Shown: positions 1-40,890 of the stretch, in pieces
Numbering within the stretch: position 1 is the first letter of the stretch
How the letters are laid out: every line of letters starts with the position of its first letter
Source of the DNA: a virus
Taxonomy: Duplodnaviria; Heunggongvirae; Uroviricota; Caudoviricetes
Virus record (IMG/VR): IMGVR_UViG_2877953467_000002
Strand: one strand, 5' to 3'
Length of the DNA stretch: 40,890 nucleotides
The notes under the pieces: model-generated
What the model was told of the DNA's origin: nothing
What the model saw: only the letters and a program-made list of their open reading frames with translations
Database searches by the model: none
Position numbers and translations under genes: made by a program

Positions 1-1119
1 TCAAATAACCAACTTAACCCATTCCTGACCTCGAGTATCGTTATAGCGATCGGTGGTTGCCTGGACTTTATGTCCTAGTAATGTTTTTGTATCGATACCC
101 TGTGCACGGTACAGCCGTTCTGATAGAGAGCGTTGTTCATGAAATGTTGGCGGAGTTTTTCCTGCTGGTGGAATTATCCCAGCCAGATCCCGTGCTTTGG
201 CAAAGTAGTCGCTCAGGTTGTCTTTACTCATCGGCTTCGGTTGTTTCTGGTGCCGACTATGGATTAGATATGGACTTAATATTCTGTCTCGGCACCCATC
301 AATAACTTCTTTTAACGTTATCCCAATGGCATCACAGCGTAGTGTAAGCGGTAACGCCAGACGCATTCCGGTTTTTCCCTGGGTGATATGCAAGTGTTCG
401 TTCCACACATCTGAAAAACGCATGTGGCAAATGTCATCACGGCGCTGACCAGTAACAATCGCAAGAAGCATTGCGTTACGGATAAAGTGTTTTTCAGGCG
501 TTGCATTGTAAATTTTTTGCCAGTCTTCCATGGTGAGCCTGGCTCTGGTTACTTTAGGGATCGGTTTACGGGTAGCCTCCGGAGGATTCCATCCAGGAGG
601 AACTTCCCCTGCATGCTGTGCTTCTTTATAAATATCAACCCATAATCCACGATTTACTCTCGCTGTGCTGACCATGTCTTTATCCAGCCACTCATCCAGT
701 ATTAATGCAAAGTCTCTTACTTCCAGTTCTTTCAATGGGTGGTTTCCCAGACGGGAAACCAGGTATGCAGCCATTCGAGTTTTTTCTTTGTGAGTTGTAG
801 CTGCAATATCTCCATTTTTCAGTCGCGTGTCCTGTATTTTCAGATATCGATCAACCCATGCCTTTAATCTGATACCCCGACGTTTTGTTGCTGACAGACT
901 TTCATCAATTTTGCGCATGAAATATTCAGCTTCTGCTGCAGCTATTCGCTGATTGGCTGTGGAAGCGATTTTTTCTGCCTTACCTTTGTCTGTTCCGAGT
1001 CCGTGAAATTTTCCAGTCACAGGATTTTTATACTGGTAGTAAACTCTGCCAGTTCTGCGATCAAACTTTTCGTAAAGACCGGCTACGTCAGTGCTGTTTT
1101 TTCGTGGCCTCGGTGACAT
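1..1119 (-). CDS. int: Phage integrase, tyrosine recombinase (lambda Int-like)
   Basis: 372-aa ORF at the prophage edge; C-terminal catalytic region typical of tyrosine recombinases; overlaps the xis start as in lambda. Confidence 0.9.
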   Translation of the reverse strand: MSPRPRKNSTDVAGLYEKFDRRTGRVYYQYKNPVTGKFHGLGTDKGKAEKIASTANQRIAAAEAEYFMRKIDESLSATKRRGIRLKAWVDRYLKIQDTRLKNGDIAATTHKEKTRMAAYLVSRLGNHPLKELEVRDFALILDEWLDKDMVSTARVNRGLWVDIYKEAQHAGEVPPGWNPPEATRKPIPKVTRARLTMEDWQKIYNATPEKHFIRNAMLLAIVTGQRRDDICHMRFSDVWNEHLHITQGKTGMRLALPLTLRCDAIGITLKEVIDGCRDRILSPYLIHSRHQKQPKPMSKDNLSDYFAKARDLAGIIPPAGKTPPTFHEQRSLSERLYRAQGIDTKTLLGHKVQATTDRYNDTRGQEWVKLVI

Positions 1120-4499: not shown

Positions 4500-4557
4500 A
4501 AAAAGGGCGGCAGAGCAGTCACGGAGTAAAACTGATACCGCCAAACGTCACCAGAAA
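4500..4557 (-). ncRNA. dicF: DicF small RNA (Hfq-dependent, ftsZ-targeting) with intrinsic terminator
   Basis: Reverse complement reads TTTCTGGTGACGTTTGGCGGTATCAGTTTTACTCCGTGACTGCTCTGCCGCCCTTTTT, which matches DicF as I recall it; GC-rich hairpin plus U-tract at the 3' end; immediately upstream of dicB. Confidence 0.7.
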
Positions 4558-10433: not shown

Positions 10434-10552
10434 GACTGCGGGTGCTTGAGGCTATCTGTCTCAGGCATGAACACCAAAAGGCAGATAGAGAAAAGCCCCA
10501 GTTAACATTACGCGTCCTGCAAGACGCTTAACATTAATCTGAGGCTCAATCT

Positions 10553-10765
10553 ATGAACGGCAAATCTAGGTTAGCCTCTTACGTGCCGAAAGGCAAGGAG
10601 AAGCAGGCTATGAAGCAGCAAAAGGCGATGTTAATCGCCCTGATCGTCATCTGTTTAACCGTCATTGTGACGGCACTGGTAACGAGGAAAGACCTCTGCG
10701 AGGTACGAATCCGAACCGGCCAGACGGAGGTCGCTGTCTTCACAGCTTACGAACCTGAGGAGTAA
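10553..10765 (+). CDS. mok: Mok-like overlapping reading frame (modulator of killing)
   Basis: 70-aa ORF that begins upstream of and runs through the hok frame, as in hok/sok loci. Confidence 0.5.
   Translation: MNGKSRLASYVPKGKEKQAMKQQKAMLIALIVICLTVIVTALVTRKDLCEVRIRTGQTEVAVFTAYEPEE
10610..10765 (+). CDS. hok: Hok/Gef-family type I toxin
   Basis: 51 aa MKQQKAMLIALIVICLTVIVTALVTRKDLCEVRIRTGQTEVAVFTAYEPEE: single TM helix followed by the conserved RK(D/S)LCE(V/I)R...EVAAF-like core of Hok proteins. Confidence 0.8.
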   Translation: MKQQKAMLIALIVICLTVIVTALVTRKDLCEVRIRTGQTEVAVFTAYEPEE

Positions 10766-13613: not shown

Positions 13614-13689
13614 GGCCCTTTAGCTCAGTGGTGAGAGCGAGCGACTCATAATCGCCAGGTCGCTGGTTCAAATCCAGCAAGGGCCACCA
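13614..13689 (+). tRNA. ileZ: tRNA with CAU anticodon, closest to tRNA-Ile2 (ileX/ileZ-like)
   Basis: 76-nt cloverleaf folded by hand: acceptor GGCCCTT/AAGGGCC, D-arm GCTC...GAGC, anticodon loop CTCATAA, T-arm GCTGG TTCAAAT CCAGC, encoded CCA; near-identical to E. coli ileX as recalled. Confidence 0.8.
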
Positions 13690-14031: not shown

Positions 14032-14228
14032 ATTGTCTGGCTGCCGGAGAATTTGTTAAAAATTACATCGCATGGTGAATCCCCCTCAGCGGCGGGGCAT
14101 CTGGCAAAGTGTATGATCCAGAGAACATGCAAATTCAGTAGACAGGCTGAATTTACCGGGAGGCCCCTGGCACCATGCGACAGACAGAAATTAGGCTATA
14201 CTTCAGCCCCTCTCCGGAGGGGCTTTTC
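14032..14228 (+). repeat. Noncoding repeat unit, copy 1, ending in an intrinsic terminator (14205-14228)
   Basis: About 200 bp; shares ATTGTCTGGC, GTTTGTTAAAAA, GCATGGTGAATCCCCCT, an ACCGGGAGGC-CC-GGCACCATGC hairpin motif and the terminator AGCCCCTC-TCCG-GAGGGGCT with copy 2. Confidence 0.5.
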
Positions 14229-14418
14229 TGTGCAGGATGTGTCACAGTTTCCTGAATTCTGAGTACTGTCCTGTTACTCAGGGTGCTATATTTTCTGACG
14301 TGATGAAAGTCTGCCGGAAGGCGGAACGTATCGGAAATGACCCAGTAGAGAAAACGTTGACTCAGATACCGATGCTGAGTTACCGGGAAACCGGCATCAC
14401 ATGACCGCTATCCTTCCA

Positions 14419-14500: not shown

Positions 14501-14693
14501 ATTGTCTGGCCGGCGGGAAGTTTGTTAAAAAATTTCGCATGGTGAATCCCCCTGTGCGGAGGGGTAATCAGCGAGTAGGTATATGGGATAATCGCGGATT
14601 CAGGTGCTGGTACTGAATTCACCGGGAGGCACCCGGCACCATGCAATGGCACATAGCGCCACTCTCCAGCCCCTCTCCGGAGGGGCTGTTTAT
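14501..14693 (+). repeat. Noncoding repeat unit, copy 2, ending in an intrinsic terminator (14668-14693)
   Basis: See copy 1; conserved blocks flank a divergent central segment. Confidence 0.5.
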
Positions 14694-14722
14694 ATTGATT
14701 TTGTCAGATGTGAGTAAACTCC

Positions 14723-15058
14723 TTATGGACTTTGTTGTTTTAGTCCATAAGGACATATTTGCAGAATGCAACGGTTATTAAAGCATTCATTCAATACGTT
14801 ATCTGTATTTGTAGGGCATTCCTGGCTGTTTTTGATTAAATTCCAGAATGTTTTATTGAATGGTACTACGTTGTAAATGGTTACAGGTAGCACTTTGTTA
14901 TTGAGCATGATACCTGTGTGAGTCAGTGTAAATATACTTTCAGGAGGTAAGAAAGCATCCGATTGATACCAGATTATTAATTTTACTTTACTCCATATGA
15001 CTGAAAAAGATATTCCGCATGATGGCTGGATAACTGTATCAATTACAATCCACTTCAT
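14723..15058 (-). CDS. Hypothetical protein in an AT-rich segment (moron candidate)
   Basis: 111-aa ORF with AAGGAAG RBS 6 nt upstream; AT-rich flanks; perfect 12-bp-stem hairpin (14720-14753) at its 3' end; no recognisable domain. Confidence 0.45.
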
Positions 15059-15318
15059 TTAGCTTCCTTGTTTATGCCTTGCTGGTGATGTTCTGAAAAG
15101 TATAAATGATATTTTTGAATATAAACCATAGAGCAGAATTATTTTTCTGATGTTGTTTATTGTTTATTTAAATGCAGGGTGGTTTATATCTCGTCTTGTA
15201 GTTTATCCATGCATATCTGCTTGATGATCAGGTTTCTATTTAAGGTATGGTTTTGTGTTTTTTCTGTGTTACATGTCTGGTATTTTAAAGAATTATTTTT
15301 CAGATGGTGGAAAGAACC

Positions 15319-15507
15319 ATGGCATTTAAACACTATGATGTTGTCAGGGCGGCGCCGCCGTCAGATCTTGCGGAAAAGCTGACACATAAACTGAAAGAGG
15401 GCTGGCAGCCGTTTGGTAGTCCGGTGGCCATAACCCCTTATACCCTGATGCAGGCGATTGCAGCAGAAGGTGATGTGGTGGTCAGTGGTGCAACTGAGCC
15501 GGAGTGA
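15319..15507 (+). CDS. Small conserved phage protein upstream of the holin (possibly DUF1737-like)
   Basis: 62 aa from ATG 15319; position typical of a small conserved gene preceding S in lambdoid phages; family label from memory. Confidence 0.4.
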   Translation: MAFKHYDVVRAAPPSDLAEKLTHKLKEGWQPFGSPVAITPYTLMQAIAAEGDVVVSGATEPE

Positions 15508-17471: not shown

Positions 17472-17765
17472 TTATTGTGAGCAATACACACGCGCTTCCA
17501 GTGGAGTATAAATGCCTAAAGTAATAAAACCGAGAAATCCATTTACGAATGTTTGCTGGGTTTCTGTTTTAACAACATTTTCTGCGCCGCCACAAATTTT
17601 GGCTGCATCAACAGTTTTCTCCTGTCCAATTCCCGAAACGAAGAAATGATGGGTGATGGTTTCCTTTGGTGTTACTGCTGTCGGTTTGTTTCCAACAGTA
17701 AACGTCTGTTGAGCACATCCTGTAATAAGCATTGCCAGAGCGGCAGAAAACAACATTTTTTTCAT
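17472..17765 (-). CDS. bor: Bor lipoprotein (serum-resistance moron)
   Basis: 97 aa MKKMLFSAALAMLITGCAQQ...; lipobox ITGC; matches lambda Bor as recalled; sits after Rz as in lambda. Confidence 0.9.
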   Translation of the reverse strand: MKKMLFSAALAMLITGCAQQTFTVGNKPTAVTPKETITHHFFVSGIGQEKTVDAAKICGGAENVVKTETQQTFVNGFLGFITLGIYTPLEARVYCSQ

Positions 17766-40000: not shown

Positions 40001-40890
40001 GGTCGGTAGGCACATCAGAAAGCACAGGCAAAATGTTGTTCCTGAAAAACCACAGAAGCAGCGCTCAAGTGCTGTTAAATGGCGATGATGGAGCGGTTCA
40101 ACTACTAAGTGGCACTGTTAACGGTGCTACAGCGCAGGCGCTAACCATCAACAAAGATGAGGTTAACTCAACTGCCGATTTAGTAATTAGAAAACAAACA
40201 GGGACTGGCAATCGTTTTGCTTTACTTAATTCAGGTAATTCAGAACTACCAGTTAGTATCAGGGTGTGGGGTTCCAGTACTCGACAAAACGTTTTTGAGG
40301 TTGGAACGTCTGCTGCGTATCTGTTTTATGCGCAAAAAACAACAGACGGGCAAAACCTTACTGAACCGCCCCGGGTTTCCTNNNNNNNNNNNAGGATTCC
40401 CGGGGCGGTTCATACTGTAAACGGAAGTGTTAACTGCACCACACTGAATCAGTCATCAGACCGCAGACTGAAAGAAAATATCGAGATTATCGATAACGCG
40501 ACTGACGCAATCCGCAAAATTAATGGATACACGTACACGCTCAAGGAGAATGGGGCACATTGCGCCGGGGTTATAGCCCAGGAAGTTGAAGAGGCCATCC
40601 CGGAGGCCGTTGGTTCATTCATCCATTACGGTGAAGAGTTGCAAGGCCCGACCGTTGACGGCAACGAGCTACGCGAAGAAACGCGCTATCTTAATGTTGA
40701 CTACGCCGCCGTGACGGGTTTACTTGTTCAGGTCGCCCGTGAAACAGATGATCGCGTTACCGCGCTGGAAGAGGAAAACACAACGCTACGTCAAAATCTG
40801 GCAACAGCAGGCACCCGGATCAGCACTCTGGAAAATCAGGTAAGCGAACTGGTTGCACTTGTCCGGCAGTTAACAGGAAGCGAACATTAA
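37078..40890 (+). CDS. stf: Side tail fiber protein (lambda Stf-like N-terminus, Ala/Ser-rich fibrous repeats, C-terminal S74-type intramolecular chaperone domain)
   Basis: N-terminus MAVKISGVLKDGTGKPVQNCTIQLKA... matches lambda Stf as recalled; long SAxxSA repeat region; C-terminal SDRRLKENIEII...GYTYTLKENG motif of auto-cleaving chaperone domains; contains the 11-N gap; stop at 40888-40890. Confidence 0.85.
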   Translation: MAVKISGVLKDGTGKPVQNCTIQLKAKRNSTTVVVNTLASENPDEAGRYSMDVEYGQYSVILLVEGFPPSHAGTITVYEDSRPGTLNDFLGAMTEDDARPEALRRFELMVEEVARNASAVAQNTAAAKKSASDASTSAREAATRATDAAGSARAASTSAGQAASSAQSASSSAGTASTKATEASKSAAAAESSKSAAATSAGAAKTSEMNAAASQKSAATSASTATTKASEAATSARDASASKVAAKSSETSAASSAGSAASSATAAGNSAKAAKTSETNADNSAQAAADSQTASANSATAAKKSETNAKNSEAAAKVSETNAKASENKAKEYLDKVGGLVSPMTQYDWPVVTGNESFYIKIAKLSDPGSGNCHVTLMVTNAGNYGSPYGNIDFIEISARGLPSLLSADNVSRHLSIRRLGSIGLTDNNQMRYGLVKGDGFIEVWAFQRAFINGAKVAVLAQTARPELYIPDGFVKQTAAPSGYVESPVVRIYDQLNKPTKADLGLSNAMLTGAFGLGGSGISTNGKMSDVEILKALRDKGGHFWRGDKPTGSTATIYSHGSGIFSRCGDTWSAINIDYSTAKIKIYAGNDARLNNGTFSINELYGSANKPSKSDVGLGNVTNDAQVKKSGDVMSGDLDILKETPSIRLKSAKGTAHLWFMNNDGSERGVVWSPENNESLGEIHIRAKNTKGESSGDFIVRHDGRVEARNLKITYKISAATAEFANTSTSSDNTTVSIKGSQHTPLVLTSNNTIKNLSIGFKVDDVDQKYLGIAGDGDLYFGSYSDHTKNSKVITQAKLDSGVTVGGKTTFSDFATFNAGMAGSIEPETIDNKTIDLNDLIIANTVAGSVKYYQCKTVAGGAYITNKPDGVSGNFLLRVESTRKTTGSDYAIMQTLIGSDTKRIYVRFVVNGNWTEWSQVVVSGWNQDVTVRSLTSTTPSKLGGGRVDVLGSTSDYSSMNCAVRGVDSTGTNSAWSVGTSESTGKMLFLKNHRSSAQVLLNGDDGAVQLLSGTVNGATAQALTINKDEVNSTADLVIRKQTGTGNRFALLNSGNSELPVSIRVWGSSTRQNVFEVGTSAAYLFYAQKTTDGQNLTEPPRVSXXXXRIPGAVHTVNGSVNCTTLNQSSDRRLKENIEIIDNATDAIRKINGYTYTLKENGAHCAGVIAQEVEEAIPEAVGSFIHYGEELQGPTVDGNELREETRYLNVDYAAVTGLLVQVARETDDRVTALEEENTTLRQNLATAGTRISTLENQVSELVALVRQLTGSEH
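40382..40392. other. Assembly gap (11 N) flanked by a 14-bp inverted repeat
   Basis: Run of n characters inside the stf ORF; left flank TGAACCGCCCCGGG (40363-40376) is the reverse complement of the right flank CCCGGGGCGGTTCA (40399-40412). Confidence 0.95.

Follow-up and report, generated by a model that had tools for sequence, protein, structure and literature searches.

The gene and its surroundings

The DNA analysed here (the window, 40,890 nucleotides) is a lambdoid prophage that runs from an integrase gene at its start (1-1119, minus strand) to tail-fibre genes at its right end. A 111-amino-acid open reading frame with an ATG start, present in the ORF list, occupies 14723..15058 of the minus strand, stop codon included. 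It is antisense to the late operon and lies between two plus-strand small-RNA genes on its left and the lysis genes on its right, where DUF1737, holin, DUF1327, lysozyme and Rz follow. The original prediction had the orientation and the position right; of its span, 14720-15058, the reading frame stands, but 14720 is the first base of a hairpin and the frame itself begins at 14723. The good ribosome-binding site claimed for it can be read directly from the minus strand (AAGGAAGCTAAATG) as a Shine-Dalgarno sequence, AAGGA, at 15065..15069, with 6 nt separating AGGA from the ATG; it is kept in the alleles of the gene discussed below. The segment is also as AT-rich as was claimed, with a GC content of 0.33-0.35 in 400-nt windows over 14800-15399 compared with about 0.48-0.53 on both sides.

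What was described earlier as noncoding repeats is a tandem pair of STnc100-family sRNA genes, each ending in the same terminator, AGCCCCTCTCCGGAGGGGCT. Copy 1 is at 14040-14233 (plus strand; Rfam RF02076, 138 bits) and copy 2 at 14509..14697 (plus strand, 132.5 bits); the gathering score of the family is 47. The terminator of copy 2 (14667-14688, plus a T-tract) converges on the 3' end of the reading frame, 25 nt from its stop codon. According to a 2026 preprint, STnc100 is related to the PasD sRNAs of Shiga toxin (Stx) phages.

The original prediction gave the frame no known function, and in this respect it has been overtaken. Uropathogenic E. coli strain CFT073 carries in its potB prophage island a gene, iraL (c1429), that was described by Hryckowian et al. 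(2014, mBio; PMC4045071), and the protein of the window is identical to CFT073 IraL at 109 of 111 residues (98%), the substitutions being I25V and T98I. At the DNA level the identity is about 99% over 761 bp, an alignment that spans the promoter, the 5' UTR, the coding sequence, the hairpin and the downstream sRNA terminator. In the 2014 survey, iraL was defined by at least 95% nucleotide identity to the CFT073 gene across the whole coding region; the window differs from it at 5 of 336 coding positions and so falls within that definition. Gene order is common to the two prophages (RusA, Q, tRNA or tRNAs, DUF3927, iraL on the minus strand, DUF1737, holin, YdfR, lysozyme), which places the frame within a lambdoid prophage and between Q/tRNA and the lysis genes, where iraL is expected. 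The two loci differ in that CFT073 has an IS200 element and three tRNA genes, and the window has one tRNA gene and the two STnc100 copies. Since the protein, the DNA, the gene order and the mapped 5' end of the CFT073 transcript (see below) all agree, the frame is, by sequence comparison, iraL, which is a paralogue of iraM carried by prophages; it is a true moron and an already characterised gene.

The single tRNA gene of the window (13614-13689, plus strand, anticodon CAT) is called Met by ARAGORN and tRNA-Ile by RefSeq. The three at the same place in CFT073, beside IS200, are Ile, Arg and Arg.

When 14600-15300 was compared by megablast with complete E. coli genomes, 1430 of 5426 proved to contain at least 80% of this 701-bp stretch, many of them with 100% identity; the allele recurs unchanged in many clinical isolates and induced phage genomes. 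On identical DNA, PGAP/RefSeq gives the label 'anti-adapter protein IraM' (WP_001333560.1), and four induced or sequenced phage records that carry the segment bear the same label. The PHROGs match (phrog_4407, E = 8e-73) is labelled 'unknown function'. A known and distinct regulator is thus hidden by its annotation, as one resource names it for its paralogue and the other gives it no function. The gene has been in the literature since 2014, the structure of its paralogue in complex with RssB dates from 2023, and this exact sequence already has a RefSeq label as an anti-adaptor. What seems worth passing on is the hidden IraL annotation, a change in the probable -35 hexamer, and a conserved four-cysteine tail for which we found no published study in the accessible literature.

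The moron and its 3' hairpin

The suggestion that the gene belongs to a horizontally acquired moron is borne out by comparison with related Stx phages, which have the flanks of the insert without 14694-15318. Similarity to these phages stops at 14693, the end of the STnc100-family sRNA gene and its terminator, and in an Stx1a phage without iraL it resumes at 15319, the start of DUF1737. From these limits and the GC profile, the moron can be placed at about 14694-15318, some 620 bp. Its GC content is 0.33-0.35 against about 0.50 in the flanks, and it is transcribed against the late operon; the second STnc100 copy lies outside it. A promoter of its own, mapped by 5' RACE in the CFT073 orthologue, appears from its sequence to be conserved in the window.

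The slot, between Q and the lysis genes, is the one that holds stx in Stx phages, so that iraL shares a cargo position with Shiga toxin. In phage 1717 a version of the whole unit adjoins stx2c, aligning over about 950 bp at 70% nucleotide identity. Its gene (gp43; the IraM-like gene of phage 2851 is its counterpart) has the same antisense orientation and lies in the same Q-to-lysis cargo region, directly after stx2B and before nanS-p. The product, of 107 amino acids, is 74% identical to IraL and lacks the C-terminal residues QQSP; the gene also lacks the 12-bp hairpin described below and has an STnc100-type terminator about 20 nt past its stop codon. Because this diverged unit follows stx2B in both 1717 and 2851, genes of the IraM/IraL family appear to recur as cargo in the slot. 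The gene in phage 1717 (4001-4324), phage 2851 and many Stx2c and Stx2a phages represents a third gene of the IraM/IraL type, mostly unannotated in the records, and we found no experimental work on the 1717/2851 gene in the literature. In K-12, iraM lies just outside the annotated boundary of e14, adjoining the icdC remnant and near ycgX, whose family, DUF1398, is often met in lambdoid prophages. The position is consistent with K-12 iraM also being a relic of prophage cargo.

The hairpin noted earlier at the 3' end of the frame was described correctly. On the minus strand at 14720..14753, two fully complementary arms, TCCTTATGGACT and AGTCCATAAGGA (14720-14731 and 14742-14753), form a 12-bp stem around a 10-nt loop; the hairpin takes in the final codons of iraL and its stop. 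No other perfect short-range inverted repeat in the window is as long. The RNA of the gene strand folds at -17.5 kcal/mol (z = -6.0), and none of 200 shuffles is as stable; with five G-C pairs the stem is a stable G+C stem. The 5' arm encodes CPYG(L), which is invariant in the family, and the 3' arm comprises codons 110-111 and the TAA stop. Lying to the right of 14693, the hairpin belongs to the moron and not to the conserved sRNA module.

[quoted passage not shown] Such terminators were defined by a loop of 3-8 nt and at least 5 U among the 8 nt directly after the stem. Here the loop measures 10 nt, four of the 8 nt that follow the stem (tail GUUUACUC) are U, and the hairpin does not figure among the results of the terminator scan. 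That scan, on the minus strand from the stop codon to 14209, gave no canonical terminator for iraL; the terminator of the sRNA gene at 14667-14688 has its T-tract on the plus strand only. We suggest that the hairpin, at the downstream end of the moron, may make up the 3' end of the mRNA, acting as an intrinsic terminator of a weak, atypical kind or blocking 3' exonucleases, and that it would keep iraL transcription from entering the convergent STnc100-type sRNA gene in the antisense direction. The chances that it is an atypical terminator or an end-protecting stem-loop are roughly even.

Comparison of alleles and paralogues gives a mixed picture. The stem is present at all 86 iraL loci collected from IMG/VR, GTDB and RefSeq, which says nothing on selection because the loci are at least 98% identical to one another. 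The variants among them are an A-to-G change giving a G.U pair (36 loci), a G-to-C change that breaks a pair (five loci) and a T-to-C change that breaks the end pair (one locus); no compensatory changes were seen within this set. Covariation across paralogues draws on three informative lineages only. In K-12 iraM, 8 of the 12 pairs are kept in the same register, with three G.U pairs and one double change from T-A to A-T; the iraM stem is imperfect, and K-12 has in addition a canonical terminator about 55 nt further downstream. In the 1717 type the 3' arm is lost and with it the hairpin. When the 3' ends are aligned, K-12 iraM and the 1717 type both have their TAA stop opposite CAA, codon 108 of iraL, from which it follows that the four extra residues of IraL, QQSP, arose by a change of the stop codon.

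The same alignment suggests how a hairpin could have arisen without any function. The CPYG codons are quasi-palindromic in iraL (GTCCTTATGGAC) and palindromic in the paralogues as well (GCCCATATGGGC in K-12, GCCCATACGGGC in phage 1717), so that a short local duplication or inversion together with the change from TAA to CAA, adding four codons, might have produced the stem as a by-product. The poor U-tract, the lack of compensatory changes within iraL and the loss of the hairpin in the 1717 type fit such an origin. The perfection of the 12-bp stem, however, is far above chance, and its place, just within the left boundary of the moron, is where a terminator of the moron would be expected. No other candidate for the iraL 3' end precedes the convergent sRNA gene, and the K-12 stem keeps the register with one double change. 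On balance we consider a functionless hairpin unlikely, while giving it real weight among the alternatives.

Promoter and regulation

The 5' end of the CFT073 transcript determined by RACE, ACATCACCAGCAAGGCATAAACAAGGAA... (PMC4045071), matches the minus strand of the window from 15091 downward, which would place the transcription start at 15091 and the 5' UTR at 15059..15091. The iraL promoter has been described as having sigma-70-like -10 and -35 elements (PMC4045071). The hexamer TATACT at 15099..15104 (minus strand), 7 nt upstream of the presumed start, is probably the -10 element. The probable -35 region is at 15120..15127 (minus strand), where the window reads GGTTTATA and CFT073 GGTTTACA, a change from TTTACA to TTTATA. 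The TTTATA type occurs at 13 of 85 iraL loci, and further -35 alleles have TTTACAATC or a 1-nt deletion. Some iraL copies were reported to have a point mutation in the -35 element, and the authors were unsure if these are expressed (PMC4045071); in strain JJ1886 it is the second copy of iraL that carries a -35 mutation. The TTTATA of the window may be this published mutation. Over the 260 bp upstream, the window and CFT073 differ at 10 positions, and just before the ATG, CFT073 has AAACCA where the window has AAGCTA.

These differences raise the question of whether an intact gene might be poorly expressed, or silent, in the lysogen and so have little effect on RpoS in the host, as a result of the C-to-T substitution in the probable -35 element, H-NS silencing of an AT-rich island, or both. 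The TTTATA allele is in the minority, and the uncertainty voiced about -35 mutations would extend to it. As to H-NS, a GC content of 33-35% and the rise of iraL mRNA at 37 C, which would be typical of H-NS-silenced genes, together suggest that iraL may be subject to such silencing. On the other hand, the -10 element, the start site, the UTR and the ribosome-binding site are all intact, and the identical allele is maintained in many clinical isolates and induced phage genomes. The position of the -35 at 15120..15127 is itself our assignment. Weak or absent expression appears improbable.

Still less probable is that the gene is an iraM proper, induced through PhoP/PhoQ on Mg2+ starvation, with a product that grips both RssB domains as K-12 IraM does. 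The PGAP name and membership in the same NCBIfam subfamily speak for it, as does a PhoP-box-like direct repeat, TGTTTA-TTGTT-TATTTA, at 15154..15170 on the plus strand, 63-79 nt upstream of the presumed start and with one mismatch. Nowhere else in the window is there a match with at most one mismatch, but at least one such match turns up in 44 of 100 shuffles, so this one is not above chance; and because the region upstream of K-12 iraM has 2-mismatch matches only, the pattern scan does not discriminate. When iraM in the strict sense is taken as at least 95% identity to the K-12 gene, the window gene falls far outside, with 63% amino acid identity (compared with 98% to IraL), coding DNA that is only partly alignable and an upstream region that cannot be aligned with the K-12 iraM promoter. 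The iraL and iraM matches of the 2014 survey formed two non-overlapping sets (PMC4045071). [quoted passage not shown] Regulation and mode of action in the manner of K-12 IraM are accordingly very improbable, and the reading as iraL stands.

IraL as an anti-adaptor of RssB

IraL was reported as a 59%-identical homologue of IraM, and the orthologues of CFT073 and Shigella sonnei have been studied (PMC4045071). Cells from which iraL has been deleted contain less RpoS in log phase, and its half-life drops by half, from about 5 to 2.5 min; putting the gene back with its native promoter raises RpoS stability (PMC4045071). [quoted passage not shown] In CFT073 RNA-seq, iraL mRNA is detected and goes up by 1.6 log2 on a shift to 37 C, and IraL levels go up in a fur mutant. 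The family has a further member in Salmonella, RssC, with 49% identity between rssC and iraL; it has been reported only in Salmonella (PMC4045071).

The protein of the window belongs to the same family, as defined by NCBIfam NF007393 and PRK09919. It matches NF007393 (anti-adapter protein IraM) with 162 bits against a cutoff of 121 and over its full length, residues 1-110 aligning with profile positions 1-113 of 114. It is 63% identical to K-12 IraM over 107 amino acids and matches PDB chain 8twd_A, which is IraM residues 1-78 with RssB (E = 9e-32). An hmmscan against the local copy of Pfam gave no family for the ORF, for K-12 IraM or for two other family members, whereas the precomputed column of the protein database gives PF11183 for these same proteins; we treat the empty scan as a limit of the local library or its filters and not as counter-evidence on homology. 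Among the 86 iraL loci there are four protein alleles only, every one of 111 amino acids. Purifying selection on the protein is evident from a dN/dS of 0.10-0.17 between iraL and its paralogues. A chance non-coding ORF or a gene fragment, in whose favour only the lack of a match in the local Pfam copy can be cited, is refuted by the full-length profile match, the dN/dS, the constant allele length and the experimental results on the CFT073 orthologue, and its probability is negligible. The original prediction had named a fragment or a lack of expression as outcomes that would tell against it; the gene is full length and constrained, and its orthologue is transcribed and has a deletion phenotype.

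The crystal structure of IraM with RssB (8TWD) has three clusters of contacts (PMC10844676). [quoted passage not shown] Cluster II, which touches the C-terminal domain, is identical at three of five (T13S, L75I), and cluster III, which touches the linker and the signalling helix, at two of four (H63N, I64V); in clusters II and III together, four of nine residues differ. The retention of cluster I and the changes in the other two could explain why IraL binds the N-terminal domain alone.

An AF2 model built from a 32-sequence alignment has a mean pLDDT of 87 and a pTM of 0.78. Its best Foldseek match is 8twd_A (E = 9e-9, TMt 0.90, rmsd 1.3 A over 78 columns), followed by PmrD structures, so that residues 1-78 are predicted to form a PmrD-like antiparallel beta-barrel with a helix. 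PmrD (PDB 4HN7, 2JSO and 2RQX; Foldseek probability 1.00, TMt 0.70-0.74) shares this fold, with a weak profile match (E = 0.04), and both are small proteins that act on the receiver domain of a response regulator. PmrD is a PhoP-activated connector of 85-89 amino acids with 12-21% identity to IraL and no cysteine-rich tail, and it differs in its target, PmrA, and in the outcome, the protection of phospho-PmrA from dephosphorylation. [quoted passage not shown] The two differ in their promoter regions, which are unrelated, in the time of action (Mg2+ starvation for IraM, log phase for IraL), in the RssB domains bound and in the C-terminal extension of IraL.

Taken together, the best explanation, which we consider very probable, is that the gene would encode the anti-adaptor IraL, stabilising RpoS, expressed from its own promoter and bounded by a hairpin at the end of the moron. 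In a lysogen, to judge from the 98%-identical gene of CFT073, iraL would be transcribed from its sigma-70-type promoter antisense to the silent late operon, and the 111-residue protein would bind the N-terminal receiver domain of the adaptor RssB, with the contact made by the PmrD-like beta-barrel of residues 1-78, if the IraM-RssB structure is a guide. RssB blocked by IraL could not pass RpoS to ClpXP, and therefore RpoS would persist longer in exponential growth. In the lytic cycle, collision with Q-modified late transcription, which comes from the opposite strand, should silence iraL. Among the genes of the prophage there would then be one that acts on host physiology by raising RpoS in growing cells, and it has been linked to uropathogenic E. 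coli and Shigella.

The part of IraL beyond the barrel, residues 79-107 (14735-14824, minus strand), carries four cysteines, C81, C92, C97 and C102, in the motif C-x10-C-x4/5-C-x4-C-P. An exhaustive profile search gave 92 representatives of the family, a word-indexed protein search 21 close relatives only. In an alignment of 32 full-length representatives, 20-41% identical to IraL, the invariant columns are M1, P12, W72, C81, C97 and C102, and at least 90% of the sequences have W30, C92 and P103. Judged by this column conservation, the four-cysteine tail is better conserved than anything else in the family, the RssB contacts included. The tail was cut off for the IraM crystal structure and called less conserved and flexible (PMC10844676), and no mention of cysteines or zinc in IraM was found in the accessible literature. 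PmrD, which aligns to residues 1-79 only, is without it. In the AF2 models the pLDDT of the tail is about 72-74 with the 32 sequences compared with less than 50 with 12 close ones. The conservation thus hints at an ordered four-cysteine module that might bind a metal, probably zinc, or be sensitive to redox state, a proposal that we make tentatively and to which we give slightly less than an even chance. If it is true, the stability or activity of the anti-adaptor could respond to metal or redox state, and the hairpin, whose 5' arm encodes CPYG, would be an RNA element laid over the most constrained codons of the gene.

Other features of the prophage include a dicF sRNA gene in the early region (4505-4556, minus strand) and a sok antitoxin RNA (10440-10615, plus strand), with hokD alongside according to the RefSeq annotation of an identical prophage. 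Eleven N in a row (40382-40392), which stand for masked or unresolved bases, occupy the middle of a 25-nt inverted repeat (40362-40412) within the tail-fibre ORF that continues past the edge of the window. A second antisense moron, the Bor/Iss serum-survival lipoprotein gene, is found at 17472-17765 (minus strand), just past the Rz gene.
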